NCBI GenBank assembly: GCA_030700225.1
Contig: JAUYJT010000052.1
Location: 3,084 to 67,083, forward strand
Length of the DNA: 64,000 nucleotides
Origin: Candidatus Nanopelagicales bacterium
GTDB lineage: Bacteria > Actinomycetota > Actinomycetes > S36-B12 > GCA-2699445
Direction of reading: 5' to 3'
Under the pieces are notes generated by a model. It had not been told where the DNA came from, did no database searches, and saw only the letters and a program-made list of their open reading frames with translations. Each line of letters opens with the position of its first letter. Positions within the stretch are counted from its first letter, which is position 1. Positions 56,780 to 64,000 of the stretch are shown piece after piece. A program made the translations under genes and the position numbers.

Positions 56780-57478
56780 ATGGGTGATCCCACGTACACC
56801 GCAGTGGCGGTTCCGCGTACCGTCGATGGTGTGGACGCTGACCCGATCCGTGTACTTGTCGTGGACGACCACGCCCTGCACCGTGATGGGACCCGACAGA
56901 TCCTCGAGCAAGAACCGGACCTTGAAGTGGTCGGCGACGCGGAGTCCGGCGAGCTTGCGCTCGCGATGGTGAGTGAGCACCGGCCGACTGTCGTGCTTAT
57001 GGATATCAGGCTTCCTGGGATGAGCGGGATTGAGGCAACGCGTCGCATTAGCGAGCGGCATCCTGACGTGCGTGTGCTCGTGGTGACGGCCTACGACGAC
57101 GACGAATACGTACGGGGAGCCCTCGAAGCTGGTGCGGCCGGCTACCTCATCAAGACTGTCGCAGCTCGCGAGCTCGTTGAAGCGGTCCGGGCTGTCGCCA
57201 CCGGGAACGCCGTCCTACAGCCGGGTCTGCTCCACTCCTTGCTCGCCGACCACGCCGTCGGCGCCGACAATCTGACCGAGCGCGAACTTGCGGTGCTGCG
57301 GCTTATCGCCGACGGGCTGCGCAACAAGCAGATCGCCACACGTCTGGGGATCAGCGCCCGCACCGTCGAACGGCACTGCGACAACATCTACGGCAAACTA
57401 GGCGTCGGCTCGCGCACTGAGGCGGTCGTCCGAGCCTTGTCCAACAAGCTGGTCCGAGTCGCCGATGACCCGCGCTGA
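56780..57478 (+). CDS. NarL/LuxR-family response regulator
   Basis: Receiver domain (RVLVVDDH, VVLMDIRLPG) plus a LuxR helix-turn-helix (LTERELAVLRLIADG). ATG 56780 chosen; the ORF opens at 56615. Confidence 0.9.
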   Translation: MGDPTYTAVAVPRTVDGVDADPIRVLVVDDHALHRDGTRQILEQEPDLEVVGDAESGELALAMVSEHRPTVVLMDIRLPGMSGIEATRRISERHPDVRVLVVTAYDDDEYVRGALEAGAAGYLIKTVAARELVEAVRAVATGNAVLQPGLLHSLLADHAVGADNLTERELAVLRLIADGLRNKQIATRLGISARTVERHCDNIYGKLGVGSRTEAVVRALSNKLVRVADDPR

Positions 57479-58937
57479 CCCGCTCTCGGCGGACTGTTCA
57501 GTTACGGGCGGAACGCACGGGTGGCTCCGCTCGGTACTCCCGCCCGTGGGTCAGATCCGCTTCTGGATAGTGCAGGCCAGCGTCGCACTGCTCGCGGCCG
57601 CGCACGACTTCGGTCTTGAGCCATCCCTGGTCTTCGGGTTGCCAGCGCCGTTCACATCCTGGCTGCTGCTGATCCCAGTCGTCTACGCCGCAGTGACCTT
57701 CGGGCTGCGAGGGGCGGTCGCCACGTCGCTGTGGGGGACGTTGCTTGTCGTCGCGCACTGGCCGTTTCCCATGGATCAGACCCCCGCGCATGTGTGGATC
57801 GAGCTGCGCTTCGTCCTGATACTCAATGTGGTCGCGATCATCGTCGGTCAGCGGGTCGAGAGCGAGCAGCAAGCCAGGCTGCGGGCCGAAGCAGCCGCCC
57901 GAAGCGTCCGAATCGCCAAGGCGCGTTACCACAGCCTGTTCGACGGTCAACCGTCACCTGTGATCATTACTGACGTCACCGGTGTGGTGAGCGAGGTCAA
58001 TGCCGCAGCCGTCACCCTGTTCGGCCGCGACCCTGCCGGACAGCCGTCCGCTGAACTGCTGGGAGACGAGGCCGCCGATGTTCTTGGCGGTGCGCCCCAT
58101 CGCCTGATGTTGCACGATGGGCAGGGGCAGGACCGGCTTTTCGTGCCGACGGCGCGCGAACTCGCCACGGACGACGGCACGTACCTCGTCCAGGTCGTGC
58201 TCACCGACGTGACGGAAGAGCACCGGCGTCATGAGGAGCAGCGCTACTTCGCCAGTCAACTCCTAGCCGTGCAAGAGGAGGAGCGGCGCAGGCTCGCACG
58301 CGAACTGCACGACGACCCGCTGCAGAACGTCATGTTTCTCACCCGAGCGCTGGACGATCTCAGCCACGAATCTGAGATTCCGGAAGCTGTCGCCCAGCGA
58401 CTCAACGTCATCGGTGGCGTCGCCGACGACGCCGCGACAGCTCTGCGCAAGCTGATCCACGGGCTCCGGCCAAGCGTCCTTGATGACCTCGGACTCGTGT
58501 CTGCGTTGCGGCAGCTGGTCAACGAGGCACGGAACCGCAGCCGGTTGGTTGTCGACTTCACTGCTACGGGTCCGGAGGCCCGGCTGCCAGCACAGGTGGA
58601 GCTCGCCGCCTACCGCATCGCCCAGGAGTCCCTCAACAACGTGATCCGACACGCCGACGCCACTCGAGCGACCGTTCGCTTGCGGTTCGGCGAGCAGCTG
58701 ACCCTGACGATCACTGACGACGGAAGTGGCATTCCCCCGAGCAAGTCCCCGGGCGACCCAGTGCCTGGGCTCGGACTCATCGGCATGCGGGAACGGGTCA
58801 ACATGACAGGGGGCACGCTCACTGTCGGGCGCGTGTCCCCTCACGGGACCCGCGTGCGGGCAAGGCTGCCCTGCGTTCATCCCGGAAACCAACAGCGCGC
58901 GGGAGTTCGCCTGCGCAGGCGTGCCAGCTCCACCTGA
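57465..58937 (+). CDS. PAS-domain sensor histidine kinase (HisKA_3)
   Basis: Four N-terminal transmembrane helices, a PAS-like region (YHSLFDGQPSPVIITD), H-box LHDDPLQNV, and HATPase motifs. 14-bp overlap with the response regulator gene. Confidence 0.85.
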   Translation: MTRADPLSADCSVTGGTHGWLRSVLPPVGQIRFWIVQASVALLAAAHDFGLEPSLVFGLPAPFTSWLLLIPVVYAAVTFGLRGAVATSLWGTLLVVAHWPFPMDQTPAHVWIELRFVLILNVVAIIVGQRVESEQQARLRAEAAARSVRIAKARYHSLFDGQPSPVIITDVTGVVSEVNAAAVTLFGRDPAGQPSAELLGDEAADVLGGAPHRLMLHDGQGQDRLFVPTARELATDDGTYLVQVVLTDVTEEHRRHEEQRYFASQLLAVQEEERRRLARELHDDPLQNVMFLTRALDDLSHESEIPEAVAQRLNVIGGVADDAATALRKLIHGLRPSVLDDLGLVSALRQLVNEARNRSRLVVDFTATGPEARLPAQVELAAYRIAQESLNNVIRHADATRATVRLRFGEQLTLTITDDGSGIPPSKSPGDPVPGLGLIGMRERVNMTGGTLTVGRVSPHGTRVRARLPCVHPGNQQRAGVRLRRRASST

Positions 58938-61408: not shown

Positions 61409-61846
61409 TCAGTTACAGACTTCCGCGTAGTAGGCCACGACGACCGGTCTGGCGGCTGTCTGTGCGGCTGCCTGCTTCTTGGTCACTGTCCCCGCCGCGG
61501 TGTTCTTGATGGCGGTGCTGATGGCTTGGTAGGCCTGTTTGACATTGTCGGGCGCGTCGGCCGGTACGGAATCGACCATTGCCTGGGTTTCCGCCAGGTA
61601 TACCTGATACGCAGCCTTGATCTGTTCCGGGTCGCCGCTCTCGATCGCGGCCTTGACGTTGACGCTTGCCGCCGACGTACCCCATGTCGTGACAGCGGTG
61701 CAGTATTGAGTCTGCTCGGCGGTCAGGCCCGTGTCCGTTGCGCTCGGTGTTCCAGAAGTGGTGCCGGAACAGCCCGCGAGAAGTGCGGTAGTGATCGCCG
61801 CAGCGCCGAAGATGCCGATCGCGGCTGTTCTTGTCCGGGTCTTCAT
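61409..61846 (-). CDS. small helical lipoprotein
   Basis: Signal peptide with lipobox LLAGC. Ala/Gln/Thr-rich mature part with two Cys. Confidence 0.75.
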   Translation of the reverse strand: MKTRTRTAAIGIFGAAAITTALLAGCSGTTSGTPSATDTGLTAEQTQYCTAVTTWGTSAASVNVKAAIESGDPEQIKAAYQVYLAETQAMVDSVPADAPDNVKQAYQAISTAIKNTAAGTVTKKQAAAQTAARPVVVAYYAEVCN

Positions 61847-62066: not shown

Positions 62067-62357
62067 CTAGAGACACTCGTTGTGTGAGCCGCTGGGCACG
62101 CACGTCCTGCCATCGACCCAAATCGCCCCGGTCAGGTTCGCCCTGGAGAGGCTCGCCTCGCGCAGGTTCGCCCCGGTCAGGTCCGCCCCGGAGAGGCTCG
62201 CCCCGGTCAGGTCACAGTCGGCGAGGTTCGCATCGGGCGCCTTGGGGATCTCAAAGCAGTCCCTCAGGGTTGGAGCCGCCGAGGCCGTGGGCCCGCCGGC
62301 CTCTCGGAGTGGTTCGGTGTCGGTCGGCGCGGCGCACGCTCCCAGCGCCAAGGCCAC
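62067..62357 (-). CDS. pentapeptide-repeat lipoprotein paralog 1 (7 repeats); ancestral start codon mutated, possible pseudogene
   Basis: Same caps as paralogs 2 and 3. The family start position 62397-62399 reads ACG instead of ATG, and the frame is open from 62411. The only canonical start is GTG 62357, which would truncate the signal peptide. Confidence 0.55.
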   Translation of the reverse strand: MALALGACAAPTDTEPLREAGGPTASAAPTLRDCFEIPKAPDANLADCDLTGASLSGADLTGANLREASLSRANLTGAIWVDGRTCVPSGSHNECL

Positions 62358-62564
62358 ACCAACACCAATCGTCGTGATTCCCGTTAGCTTGATGCGCGTA
62401 CTGCCAGTGTTTCAGCAGCCACTCGCTGTGTCTAGCCTCGGCAGAGACTCACCAGTCGTGGCCCCGTGCGGAAGTCACATGCCGCATGTCCAGCAATGCC
62501 CGCCGCTGGTGGACGCCACCTCCCGACAGGGAACTCCCGAATCAGCGCACTTGAAACCGCGACA

Positions 62565-63164
62565 CTAGCGGCACTCGCCGCGTGAGCCGGGCCCGCACGT
62601 CCTGCCATCGACCCAAATGGCATCGGGCAGGTTCGCCCCGCGCAGGTTCGCACCGGACAGATCCGCGCTGCGAAGGCTCGCGTTGCGCAGGTTCGCACCG
62701 GACAGATCCGCCCCGGACAGTCTCGCCCCGCGCAGGTCCGCGGCGATCAGGTTCGCCCCGGACAGTCTCGCCTCGCGCAGGTCCGCCCTGGAGAGGCTCG
62801 CCCCGGCCAGTCTTGCCTCGCGCAGGTCCGCCCTGGAGAGGCTCGCCCCGGCCAGTCTTGCCCCGCGCAGGTCCGCCCTGGAGAGGCTCGCGCCGGACAG
62901 GTACGCCCCGGTCAGGTTCGCCCTATGCAGGTTCGCCCCGGACAGGTCCGCCCCGGAGAGACTCGCCCCGGACAGGTCACAGTCGGCAAGGTTCGCATCG
63001 GGCGCCTTGGGGGTCTTCGAGCAGTCCCCCAGGGTTGGAGCCGCCGAGGCCGTAGGCCCGCCGGCCTCTCGGAACGGTTCGGTGTCGGTCGGTGCGGCGC
63101 ACGCGCCCAGCGCCAAGGCCACAGCAACGCCGAGCGCCTGGATTCCCGTTAGCTTGATGCGCAT
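62565..63164 (-). CDS. pentapeptide-repeat lipoprotein paralog 2 (25 repeats)
   Basis: [16 protein letters not shown] signal peptide and lipobox, a Cys-containing N-cap, 25 A(D/N/S)LxG units, and the C-cap AIWVDGRTCGPGSRGEC. Confidence 0.85.
   Translation of the reverse strand: MRIKLTGIQALGVAVALALGACAAPTDTEPFREAGGPTASAAPTLGDCSKTPKAPDANLADCDLSGASLSGADLSGANLHRANLTGAYLSGASLSRADLRGARLAGASLSRADLREARLAGASLSRADLREARLSGANLIAADLRGARLSGADLSGANLRNASLRSADLSGANLRGANLPDAIWVDGRTCGPGSRGECR
62771..62860. repeat. perfect 45-bp tandem duplication inside paralog 2
   Basis: 62771-62815 is identical to 62816-62860 (CCTCGCGCAGGTCCGCCCTGGAGAGGCTCGCCCCGGCCAGTCTTG). A third partial copy follows. Each unit encodes ARLAGASLSRADLRE. 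Confidence 0.9.
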
Positions 63165-63267
63165 ATCGCCAGTGTCTCCCGAGGCACCCTCTGTTGCCAG
63201 CCGTGGAAATGACTCACCAGTCGTGGCCCCGTGCGGTAGTCACATGCCGCTCGTCCGGAAATGCCCG

Positions 63268-63798
63268 CTACGAGCGGCTGCATTTGCCGACTGAGCCGGG
63301 CCCGCACGGCCTGCCATCGACCCAAATCGCCCACACCAGGTCTGCCCCGGACAGGTTCGCCCCGGAGAGGTTCGCCCCGAACAGGTTCGCCGCGCCCAGG
63401 TTCGCCCCGGAGAGGCTCGCCCCGGACAGGTCCGCCCCGGAGAGGTCCGCCCTGAACAGGTTCGCCCCGGTCAGGTTCGCTCCGACCAGGTTCGCCCTGA
63501 CCAGCTTCGCCCTGACCAGCTTCGCCCCGGTCAGGCTCGCCCCGGTCAGGTTCGCCCAGTTCAGGCTCGCCCCGGAGAGGTCCGCCTCGGACAGGTCCGC
63601 CCCGGTCAGGTCACAGTCGATAAGGTTCGCTTTGGGTGTCTTGGGGACGTCCGAGCAGTCCCTCAGGCCTGGAGCCGACGAGGCCGTAGGCCCGCTGGCC
63701 TCTCGGAGTGGTTCGGTGTCGGTTGGCGCGGCGCACGCACCCAGCGCCAAAGCCACACCAACACCAACCGCCGCGATTCCCGTTAGCTTCATGCGCAT
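63268..63798 (-). CDS. pentapeptide-repeat lipoprotein paralog 3 (20 repeats)
   Basis: [16 protein letters not shown] signal peptide and lipobox, the same caps, and 20 pentapeptide units including AKLVR x2. Confidence 0.85.
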
Positions 63799-63870
63799 AC
63801 GCGCAGTGTCTCACCAGTCACTCGCTGTCGCAAGCCTTGGAAAGGACTCGTCAGTTGCGACCCGGCGGTT

Positions 63871-64000
63871 GTCACCCGCCGCACGTCCTGCCATCGACCC
63901 AAATCGCCCAGGCCAGGTCACAGTCAGACAGGTCCGCTCGTGGCGCAATTGTGATAGTCGAGCGGTCCTTCAGGGCCGCAGCCGGAGGCCCGCCGACTCT
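63871..64000 (-). CDS. pentapeptide-family paralog 4, 3' part only (5' end outside window), repeat array collapsed to 2 units
   Basis: The minus-frame translation ...[42 protein letters not shown] keeps the N-cap and C-cap with no repeats between them. Confidence 0.6.

Follow-up and report, generated by a model that had tools for sequence, protein, structure and literature searches.

The closest described counterparts of the proteins treated here are the secreted pentapeptide-repeat proteins (sPRPs) of the YjbI class, which combine a signal sequence with two conserved Cys pairs flanking the helix (PMC12864828). YjbI of Caulobacter crescentus, characterized in 2026, is an envelope-stress silencer with a role at the outer membrane: sPRP function is linked there to association with the LPS outer membrane and to silencing of envelope-stress two-component systems, and it requires a charged C-terminal tail that follows the second Cys pair (PMC12864828). 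A second group comprises the lumenal proteins Rfr32, Rfr23, and TL15, which are signal-targeted, contain 5-6 coils, and have disulfide-stabilized ends (PMC8145042). PedD and RL1369 are further exported pentapeptide proteins that were known earlier. MfpA and Qnr have the pentapeptide β-helix fold in common with the proteins described below; however, they are cytoplasmic dimeric DNA mimics and possess neither a signal peptide nor Cys caps.

The locus described here lies in a window (the whole stretch of DNA that was analyzed) of 64,000 nucleotides from Candidatus Nanopelagicales (Actinomycetota), a freshwater-type host that we take to be monoderm. It consists of four homologous units at 62067-64003, all on the minus strand and named A, B, C, and D. 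Likeness to Caulobacter YjbI is judged by the published features of that protein, not by its sequence. Like YjbI, copies B and C are predicted to carry an export signal, to form a quadrilateral helix with a Cys pair at each end, and to reside outside the cytoplasm near the membrane. They differ by a signal that ends in a lipobox (type II), as opposed to a plain Sec signal, by the lack of a charged C-terminal tail, and by a monoderm actinobacterial host devoid of LPS. The Caulobacter mechanism is not directly transferable to them. Moreover, the array genes stand in tandem with degraded copies, whereas the proteobacterial sPRP-type loci examined are single genes. B and C represent a lipoprotein variant of the known secreted Cys-capped PRP class and no new kind of system; their new traits are a lipobox as anchor, a monoderm host, the absence of a charged C-terminal tail, and the arrangement in a tandem birth-and-death array. 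The original prediction had regarded exported, Cys-capped pentapeptide proteins as a family without assigned function, which the sPRP/YjbI class and the other exported proteins named above contradict.

Architecture of the array

Along the genome, the copies follow each other in the order D-C-B-A with 3, 21, 26, and 8 in-register pentapeptides, respectively. These counts take in the first ANLxD and the last AIWVD; the numbers given originally (7, 25, 20, and 2 for A to D) are the same under a count that is lower by one. The term "graded" that accompanied them does not hold since the order 3-21-26-8 has no meaningful direction. The repeat numbers of A, C, and B (8, 21, and 26) equal 0, 1, and 2 modulo 4, which would give different rotational registers.

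On the DNA level, the units form a repeat family of 300 nt with three copies (85-87% identity) and one of 81 nt with four copies (72-91% identity). They exhibit a 15-nt periodicity and, in addition, a 45-nt higher order. Together with the matches to the Pfam Pentapeptide family PF00805, this bears out the proposed tandem array of same-strand repeats. As had also been proposed, A, B, C, and D are paralogs that differ mainly in the number of pentapeptides; their shared parts diverge by 9-14%.

The regions upstream of A, B, and C are alignable over about 65-95 nt. The intergenic region upstream of A (62397-62564, minus strand) holds a 39-nt block at 62447-62485 that recurs with one base different at 63212-63250, within the region upstream of B (63165-63267, minus strand), which also carries the SD-like motif GGGAG. 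The region upstream of C (63799-63871, minus strand) is homologous to both. Hence, the duplicated unit is the gene plus its upstream DNA, in agreement with what had been concluded from the 39-nt block. The conserved blocks are simply duplicated upstream DNA: an Rfam scan assigned them to no family, and their RNA folding z-scores are about 0 (upstream of A, z = -0.07, not significant). Scans for σ70 and terminator consensus sequences yielded nothing useful.

Over 73 signal and cap codons, dN/dS among the paralogs is high (0.48-1.07; 0.86 for B versus C). Such values are compatible with relaxed constraint as well as with diversification and, thus, weaken the claim of purifying selection acting on both B and C.

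The intact copies B and C

Copy B (62565-63164, minus strand) is an intact gene of a predicted lipoprotein of 199 aa with 26 pentapeptides, corresponding to about 6.5 coils. Its signal, with the lipobox LGA|C22, is followed by a Pro/Thr/Ala linker, and the repeats stand between a Cys-x13-Cys N-cap and a C-cap (AIWVDGRTCGPGSRGEC). Copy C (63268-63798, minus strand) is likewise intact; its product, a predicted lipoprotein of 176 aa, bears the caps found in B and has 21 pentapeptides, equal to about 5.25 coils. The shared signal and lipobox and both Cys caps are present as originally described. In B and C, the repeats run in register without interruption over 176-199 codons, and both copies retain the SD-like motif and all four cap Cys residues.

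The lipobox was assessed by PROSITE PS51257, meaning [LIVMFWSTAG]2-[LIVMFYSTAGCQ]-[AGS]-C preceded by six uncharged residues, with a K/R among the first residues and the Cys at position 15-35. The signals of B and C conform to this rule with Cys22 as lipobox Cys; they consist of an n-region with R2 and K4 (two K/R), a hydrophobic core of 17 residues, and the lipobox. Among the four copies, only B and C combine an ATG, a signal peptide, and a rule-conforming lipobox. Judged from these sequence features, they are predicted lipoproteins. The claim of four exported lipoproteins is, hence, reduced to two: A has ACG in place of ATG and its lipobox fails, and D contains no signal. The C termini are short, with B ending in ...GECR, C in ...GKCSRS, and A in ...NECL, that is, 1-3 residues past the last Cys.

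Fold and Cys caps

A copy was assigned to the pentapeptide-repeat superfamily on the basis of a significant PF00805 match and at least eight contiguous in-register A(D/N)LXX repeats. B (E = 8.5e-47; 26 repeats), C (E = 1.1e-34; 21 repeats), and A (E = 2e-13; 8 repeats) belong to it, and D falls short with three repeats. The AF2 model of C has a mean pLDDT of 85.2. Residues 45-176 exceed 90 and show one bridge residue every five positions, and the N-terminal 44 residues are of low confidence; the low-confidence linker comprises roughly 25 residues. For A, a core of about 50 residues is modeled with a pLDDT of 86-90. Foldseek places the C model among pentapeptide-repeat helices, both natural and designed, with E values of 1e-8 to 1e-6 in the PDB matches listed. 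B and C are predicted to form the right-handed quadrilateral pentapeptide β-helix with flanking Cys pairs that had been anticipated.

In A, B, and C, the N-cap reads DC-x13-C(DL) and the C-cap C-x7/8-C. In alignments, both caps coincide with the Cys pairs that signal-bearing PRPs of Proteobacteria possess, and the conserved pair at each helix end probably forms a disulfide; in C, the pairs are Cys48-Cys62 and Cys165-Cys173. Rfr32 (2F3L/2G0Y), Rfr23 (2O6W), and Arabidopsis TL15 At2g44920 (3N90) match the C model with E values of 4e-7 to 2e-6. However, their C-caps are two α-helices held by a disulfide, whereas the C model contains no such helix. No PDB sequence match extends over the short cap W-x-D-G-R-x-C-x2-G-S-x-G-x-C.

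The degraded copies A and D

Copy A (62067-62396, minus strand), a short paralog, has both caps but a run of 8 in-register pentapeptides. It reads ACG where B and C have ATG, and the SD-like GGGAG/GGTGAG of the other copies is replaced by CTGAA. Its sole start codon is a GTG at 62357, from which the NCBI product P0001 of 96 aa is called; this product begins with a truncated signal (MALALGAC) that fails PS51257. Copy A recurs with 100% identity, including the ACG and the degraded ribosome-binding site, on contig L018 of the sister MAG; elsewhere, this strain diverges by about 1.5%. Copy A is probably a recently disabled gene.

Copy D (63872-64003, minus strand; in full L001 9162-9293) is a 43-codon relic reaching over the edge of the window by 3 nt; no gene is called in the record at its position. 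Its N-cap is fused to the C-cap with three pentapeptides, and signal peptide and lipobox are missing. The first cap Cys is replaced by Arg, and a stop precedes the second Cys of the truncated C-cap. Upstream of L001 9131, D gradually loses its DNA similarity to A and B, and gaps are numerous.

Relatives of the array proteins

The combination of a Cys-x12/13-Cys N-cap and a W-x-D-G-R-x-C-x2-G-S-x-G-x-C C-cap occurs in many signal-peptide-bearing proteobacterial pentapeptide proteins. Among the best 120 matches, W.DG..C..GS.G.C is present in 15, including the product of copy A itself (P0001), and most of the others among these carriers have a signal-like hydrophobic N terminus. One relative, P0028, can be aligned with copy A along 98% of its length at 35% identity (E = 2e-8). 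The two caps are no inventions of this lineage. Tails after the second Cys pair are present in the proteobacterial relatives P0003, P0006, P0014, and P0016. Twelve proteobacterial loci (L003-L014) encode N-cap, repeats, and an AIWVDGRTC C-cap behind a GYF_2 domain and a TM helix. These gammaproteobacterial proteins have the same C-x12-C N-cap with P..VNW and a near-identical AIWVDGRTC..GS.G.C. They are single-copy and anchored by the TM helix with the GYF_2 domain in the cytoplasm, whereas B and C are predicted to be anchored by lipid. Proteins with lipobox and caps exist elsewhere too, as P0292 and P0332 show in a profile search with capped sPRPs (A4). This search was otherwise dominated by generic PRPs.

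Close relatives were not found outside the species-level lineage. None with the array-type N terminus occurs beyond it in 1.84-5.8 billion proteins, and no actinobacterial relative was found among the GTDB representatives or on JGI metagenome contigs. In a HMMER search with the short copy A, giant multi-repeat PRPs fill the top 150 matches, within which P0002 of the sister strain is the only close relative. Because no close relatives were found elsewhere, conservation is unusable as an argument for function.

Genomic neighborhood

Directly downstream of the array, a gene at 61409-61846 (minus strand) encodes an unrelated predicted lipoprotein of 145 aa for which no Pfam family scored above its cutoff; its lipobox, LLAG|C26, is of the kind seen in B and C and supports their lipoprotein signal. 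At 56831-58937 on the plus strand, 3 kb from the array and opposite to it, lies a two-component system of a GerE/LuxR-type response regulator and a multi-TM PAS-HisKA_3 histidine kinase (with the ORF 57465-58937); a link between this system and the array is speculative. A tRNA gene and toxin-antitoxin modules adjoin the locus. A genomic island was considered and rejected, with no sign of a recent insertion: the 3' end of the upstream tRNA-Pro is unrepeated within the 20.6-kb locus, and the GC content matches the host. A defense system was rejected as well since neither the PRPs nor their neighbors match PADLOC.

Assembly support and strain comparison

The source sequence is a MAG, and polymorphism was sought in a single sister MAG and in three Logan contigs of short length. 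Two of the Logan assemblies, L030 and L031, agree with the array at 100% identity across D-C-B; stemming from two other runs, they match L001 8207-10301 and 9256-10237 with 0 mismatches and take in D, the whole of C, the spacer between C and B, and 100 codons of B. The sister contig L018 overlaps L030 at L001 10207-10301 and extends from residue 69 of B to its end and through the spacer, A, and 6 kb downstream with no gaps in the array. Independent contigs thus tile the whole array, which argues against an assembly artifact. The exact C sequence is found in two independent Logan assemblies and is identical in three assemblies overall, the exact B protein is found on two contigs of 50-200 kb, and the sister MAG reproduces the repeat count of B from residue 69 onward. 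The repeat-number polymorphism among strains that the original prediction suggested looking for was not seen in the stretches shared between strains or assemblies, namely, the whole of C and, in overlap, 26 repeats of B, be it in the sister MAG or in the Logan contigs.

All eight amino-acid differences between the two strains in the B repeats fall on the outward-facing positions i-1, i+1, and i+2, and the inward-facing A and L positions are kept. In other mosaic segments of the two genomes, SNPs are as dense as in the cluster within B. Contig L002 of the sister MAG ends in a C/B hybrid that switches from C-like to B-like just before its end; this may reflect genuine recombination or a chimera at the end of the contig.

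Origin and possible role of the array

We favor, with a probability of roughly 60%, a lineage-specific tandem family in which B and C are lipid-anchored capped helices and A and D have decayed. One gene with its upstream region would have been duplicated repeatedly, after which the 15-nt and 45-nt coding repeats would have expanded and contracted by recombination or slippage. The family would now be in a birth-and-death state with B and C as functional genes, A as a start-less copy, and D as an eroded stub. B and C would be exported by Sec, acylated at Cys22 through the lipoprotein pathway, and tethered to the outer face of the cytoplasmic membrane by the flexible linker of ~25 residues. They would form rigid pentapeptide β-helices of about 5-6.5 coils with ends closed by the Cys pairs. 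By analogy with the systems described above, the helix surface probably functions outside the cytoplasm as a platform to which proteins or cations bind; through it, B and C would monitor or modulate envelope state or signaling, as opposed to mimicking DNA.

That the array or its repeat numbers result from short-read mis-assembly of near-identical repeats, the real locus being a single gene or having other lengths, seems very improbable. The source is a MAG, the other short-read contigs L002, L018, L019, L030, and L031 stop within the B or A repeats, and L002 changes from C-like to B-like near its end. However, the tiling contigs and the recurrence of the exact B protein speak against it, and the divergence between the copies is large enough for assemblers to keep them apart. 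An opposite doubt concerns the genes themselves: all copies, B and C included, could be drifting, functionless remnants of an acquired gene, as two of the four are visibly degraded, dN/dS between B and C is 0.86, and relatives with the same N terminus are missing beyond the lineage. This is distinctly unlikely because B and C keep ATG, SD-like motif, lipobox, four cap Cys, and unbroken repeats, C is identical in three assemblies, the two strains retain the inward A and L positions, and the GC content is that of the host. Cytoplasmic gyrase protection by MfpA/Qnr-like DNA mimicry, with the hydrophobic N terminus being incidental, is exceedingly improbable. Foldseek does match MfpA and QnrB1, and the repeats cause weak similarity to the corresponding NCBIfam models; yet all scores amount to 35-53 bits against cutoffs of 240-500 (best, 47.9 versus 360 for MfpA and 46.9 versus 240 for Qnr). 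In addition, the proteins carry a canonical lipoprotein signal, their Cys-pair caps are common to signal-bearing relatives, and the genes called beside the array include none annotated as an MfpB-type GTPase partner.

Unlikely, too, is a variable surface or contingency family in which recombination would rapidly alter repeat number and surface residues and thereby provide a population-wide repertoire, for example, of phage or predator decoys or of variable adhesins. The differing repeat numbers of the paralogs, the perfect 45-nt higher-order repeats as slippage substrates, the exclusively outward-facing strain differences in B, the paralog dN/dS near 1, the possible C/B recombinant, and the adjacent tRNA gene and toxin-antitoxin modules would suit it. 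However, the repeat number is identical wherever strains or assemblies overlap, the SNP cluster in B does not stand out, and no simple homopolymer or phase-variation switch and no PADLOC match was seen. Furthermore, every pentapeptide protein is under constraint at its inward positions, and change confined to outward positions is, hence, the neutral expectation too. Highly doubtful is a bolder version, in which recombination-driven, length- and surface-variable lipid-anchored rods would act as extracytoplasmic sensors or decoys, for instance, gating the nearby intramembrane-sensing HisKA_3/LuxR system in the manner of YjbI, which silences envelope-stress kinases, with lengths and registers tuning the binding. 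A length-variable spacer or ruler, which had been put forward originally, is unlikely as well. The pentapeptide β-helix rises ~4.8 Å per coil, and B exceeds C by some 1.25 coils or roughly 6 Å, a difference that the flexible linker of ~25 residues would swamp.

The function of secreted PRPs is only beginning to be understood, in one diderm bacterium. A lipid-anchored, tail-less form in a monoderm actinobacterium, as predicted for the favored tandem family, would mark the Cys-capped helix as a portable extracytoplasmic module attachable by a signal peptide, a TM helix (with GYF domain), or a lipid, and its core activity is, therefore, probably LPS-independent. Beyond that, the locus is an ordinary case of a repeat-protein gene that has been duplicated in tandem and has decayed; its length series of 2, 5.25, and 6.5 coils with identical caps could be used to test how helix length affects folding and binding.

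Architecture of the array

The 3′ end of the window carries four minus-strand copies of a pentapeptide-repeat gene (A, B, C, and D), which the original prediction took for four exported lipoproteins. That observation is real but overstated: B and C are intact lipoprotein genes, A is a start-less copy, and D is a relic. This anatomy, together with the relationship of the products to secreted Cys-capped pentapeptide-repeat proteins (PRPs), has a probability of roughly 80%. The array most probably arose by lineage-specific tandem expansion with ongoing decay, and the expanded gene probably represents a lipid-anchored, tail-less variant of this known secreted class.

A six-frame ORF listing with translation yields three minus-strand pentapeptide-repeat ORFs, A (62067–62396), B (62565–63164, 199 aa), and C (63268–63798, 176 aa). 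The fourth homologous stretch, D, also on the minus strand, extends from 63872 across the window end. DNA repeat analysis gives a 300-nt family with three copies of 85 to 87% identity and an 81-nt family found in all four units (72–91%); Tandem Repeats Finder reports 15-nt arrays with a higher-order period of 45 nt. The Pfam family Pentapeptide (PF00805) matches B (E = 8.5e-47), C (1.1e-34), and A (2e-13), and in NCBIfam no family reaches its cutoff, with Qnr and MfpA scoring 35 to 53 bits against cutoffs of 240 to 500. Two long plus-strand ORFs with RFAPxRSAP-type repeats, at 62080–62568 (162 aa) and 62617–63294 (225 aa), are not evidence of genes; they arise as mirror images of the GC-rich 15-nt repeat, and Pfam matches occur in the minus-strand frames only.

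The intergenic match of 39 nt between 62447–62485 and 63212–63250, with one mismatch, is correct as first reported. The upstream DNA of A, B, and C aligns over ~65 to 95 nt; hence, the duplicated unit comprises the gene plus its upstream region, as had been proposed.

Lipoprotein signal, caps, and predicted fold of B and C

Both B and C match the PROSITE lipobox pattern PS51257, which was implemented directly, and the expected lipoprotein signal is therefore predicted for these two copies. The signal consists of an n-region with R2 and K4, a hydrophobic core of 17 residues, and the lipobox ALGA|C with Cys22. It is followed by a Pro/Thr/Ala-rich segment of ~25 residues and then by the Cys-containing segment at the start of the pentapeptide helix, the N-cap (R/G)DC-x13-CDL. 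With the initial ANLxD and the final AIWVD included, B has 26 in-register pentapeptides and C has 21. The C-cap at the other end reads AIWVDGR(T/P)CGPGSxGxC, with one to three residues beyond the last Cys. Disulfides may close both helix ends of B and C. As a curiosity, the repeat counts modulo 4 differ between the copies (A 0, C 1, B 2, D 3), so that the C-cap points to a different side in each.

The pentapeptide β-helix that had been anticipated is predicted by an AlphaFold2 model of C, calculated from a 16-sequence alignment. Its mean pLDDT is 85.2, with values >90 at residues 45 to 176 and low confidence for the first ~44 residues, and a bridge residue recurs every five positions. The Foldseek PDB matches listed for this model are natural and designed pentapeptide-repeat helices, including the exported Rfr32 (2G0Y/2F3L), Rfr23 (2O6W), and TL15 (3N90).

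The probably silenced copy A and the relic D

At the start position, A carries ACG, whereas B and C carry ATG; ~12 nt upstream, A reads CTGAA as opposed to GGGAG/GGTGAG. Downstream of the preceding stop, the first available start codon is the GTG at 62357, from which the NCBI product (P0001, 96 aa) is annotated; this product begins with MALALGAC and fails the lipobox rule. In a sister metagenome-assembled genome (MAG), A is 100% identical including the ACG, with adjoining segments differing by 1 to 6%, which rules out a sequencing error as the source of the ACG. Apart from its start, A is intact, a miniature of two coils that retains both caps; its core of ~50 residues is modeled by AlphaFold with a pLDDT of 86 to 90. 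Most plausibly, A was silenced recently.

The exact B protein also occurs on JAXMJW010000061.1 (137 kb) of GCA_034376245.1, and the proteins are annotated by NCBI as belonging to a Candidatus Nanopelagicales MAG. The locus from this second assembly, L001, is identical to the window across 11,436 common bases (L001 position p corresponds to window position 73165 − p) and reveals D in full as an ORF of 43 codons (43-residue sequence not shown). It has neither signal peptide nor lipobox, bears Arg at the first cap Cys, and stops ahead of the second C-cap Cys. The record calls no gene at this site, and upstream of D the DNA similarity to the other copies breaks up into gaps. D is a relic.

Assembly support and strain variation

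Short-read contigs tend to end inside these repeats, and in the sister MAG (GCA_034523275.1) the array is split between two contigs, L002 and L018, with a switch from C-like to B-like sequence within the last ~90 nt of L002. An origin of the array as an assembly artefact is nevertheless very improbable, as independent assemblies tile it completely. Two further sequencing runs provide Logan contigs that agree with L001 8207–10301 and 9256–10237 at every base, spanning D, the complete C gene, the C–B spacer, and B over 100 codons; L018 runs from residue 69 of B through A and 6 kb further, with no indels in the array. Polymorphism in repeat number, which had been envisaged, is not seen, since counts are equal wherever assemblies overlap. 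On L002 (9514–10235), the sister strain's first PRP gene (product P0002) is C-like for 49 codons and then B-like in the N-cap, shortly before the contig ends. Either this hybrid is a genuine allele that lost one copy by unequal C/B crossover, or the end of the contig is chimeric.

Between the two strains, the B repeats differ by 13 SNPs and eight amino-acid changes, all eight at the outward-facing positions i-1, i+1, or i+2. Inward-facing positions are under constraint in any PRP, and divergence between the two MAGs is a mosaic of 0% across some kilobases and 3 to 6% in others; for these reasons, outward-only changes are not by themselves proof of diversifying selection. In the comparison of L001 10207–17000 with L018, zero SNPs occur at L001 10661–11714 and 14145–17000, and divergence of 3 to 6% is found in the B repeats, the B–A spacer, an APH-like gene, and the end of a Wzx-like gene. 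Such a mosaic suggests that homologous recombination is frequent in this population. Over the 73 codons of signal and caps, a small sample, paralog dN/dS ranges from 0.48 to 1.07, values that are as compatible with relaxed constraint as with diversification.

Relationship to secreted capped PRPs

Copy A with its start restored, being short and cap-rich, served as the query for the caps. Near-identical proteins are limited to P0001 and P0002, but the same search returns many proteins of 100 to 190 aa with a hydrophobic N-terminal signal and Cys pairs at both ends. Herein, the N-terminal pair is C-x12-C with a P...V-x-W motif, or CxxC, and the C-terminal motif is W-x-D-G-R-x-C-x2-G-S-x-G-x-C. 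The alignment of one match, P0028, covers 98% of the query, and the C-cap is present in 15 of the first 120 matches, P0001 included. The scan of GTDB species genomes gave no actinobacterial relative; the peptide IWVDGR[TP]C occurs there at 15 loci, 14 of them in Pseudomonadota. At 12 of the 15, a cytoplasmic GYF_2 domain precedes a TM helix and the capped module.

These 12 loci (L003–L014, mostly Gammaproteobacteria; e.g., L006 1407–2279 and L014 472–1320) share a conserved single-gene architecture: cytoplasmic GYF_2, basic linker, TM helix, Cys-x12-Cys N-cap, pentapeptide helix, and AIWVDGRTC..GS.G.C C-cap. No characterization of this architecture was found, and it looks like a transmembrane-signaling version of the secreted module. 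In two metagenomic proteins from outside Actinobacteria, P0292 (L028 4027–4908) and P0332, a lipobox occurs together with a CxxC N-cap, pentapeptide runs with interruptions, and a W.DGR.C...G.C C-cap; the P0292 gene adjoins an OmpA-domain gene in a diderm-like context. Hence, the capped extracytoplasmic module occurs with three attachments: cleavable signal, TM anchor, and lipid. Judged by these sequence matches, the caps are a widespread module and not a local invention.

The starting view that exported capped PRPs had not been described is outdated in light of the literature. YjbI of Caulobacter, of the secreted class with a signal and two Cys pairs, is located at the outer membrane and silences two two-component systems of the envelope-stress response; zinc stress leads to its degradation (PMC12864828). 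Rfr32, which bears a signal peptide, and the lumenal TL15 have disulfide-stabilized C-caps, and Rfr23 contains a Cys39–Cys42 bracket (2021 PRP review, PMC8145042). Pseudomonas PedD is listed as an extracellular PRP, and Rhizobium RL1369, with a predicted signal peptide, was detected in culture supernatant. Nothing specific was found in the literature on lipobox PRPs or actinobacterial tandem PRPs; the new aspect is the so far undescribed lipoprotein form in a monoderm host. Unlike YjbI, the window proteins have no charged C-tail, and its LPS context does not apply to their host; thus, they are not strict YjbI orthologs. By analogy with YjbI, an envelope-monitoring or binding role of B and C may be proposed with low confidence.

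Genomic neighborhood

No att-like repeat of the tRNA-Pro 3′ end lies within 20.6 kb, GC content at the locus shows no anomaly, and searches for defence systems and structured RNAs gave no match. In coding-strand order, the array is preceded by tRNA-Pro(GGG) just beyond the window (L001 8162–8236, equal to window 64929–65003), an RHH/BrnT-like pair that follows the tRNA gene, and two flanking VapC-type PIN toxin–antitoxin pairs (these pairs occupy L001 8380–8864, 7401–8050, and 4203–4780), and it starts immediately after this cluster. Directly downstream on the minus strand lies a predicted 145-aa lipoprotein (61409–61846; lipobox LLAG|C26, similar to that of B and C) unrelated to the PRPs, with no Pfam family above cutoff and a sub-threshold KfrA_N-like coiled region. 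It is followed by an APH-like kinase-fold protein and a Wzx-like polysaccharide-biosynthesis membrane protein. The opposite strand encodes a PAS-HisKA_3 kinase with a GerE-type regulator.
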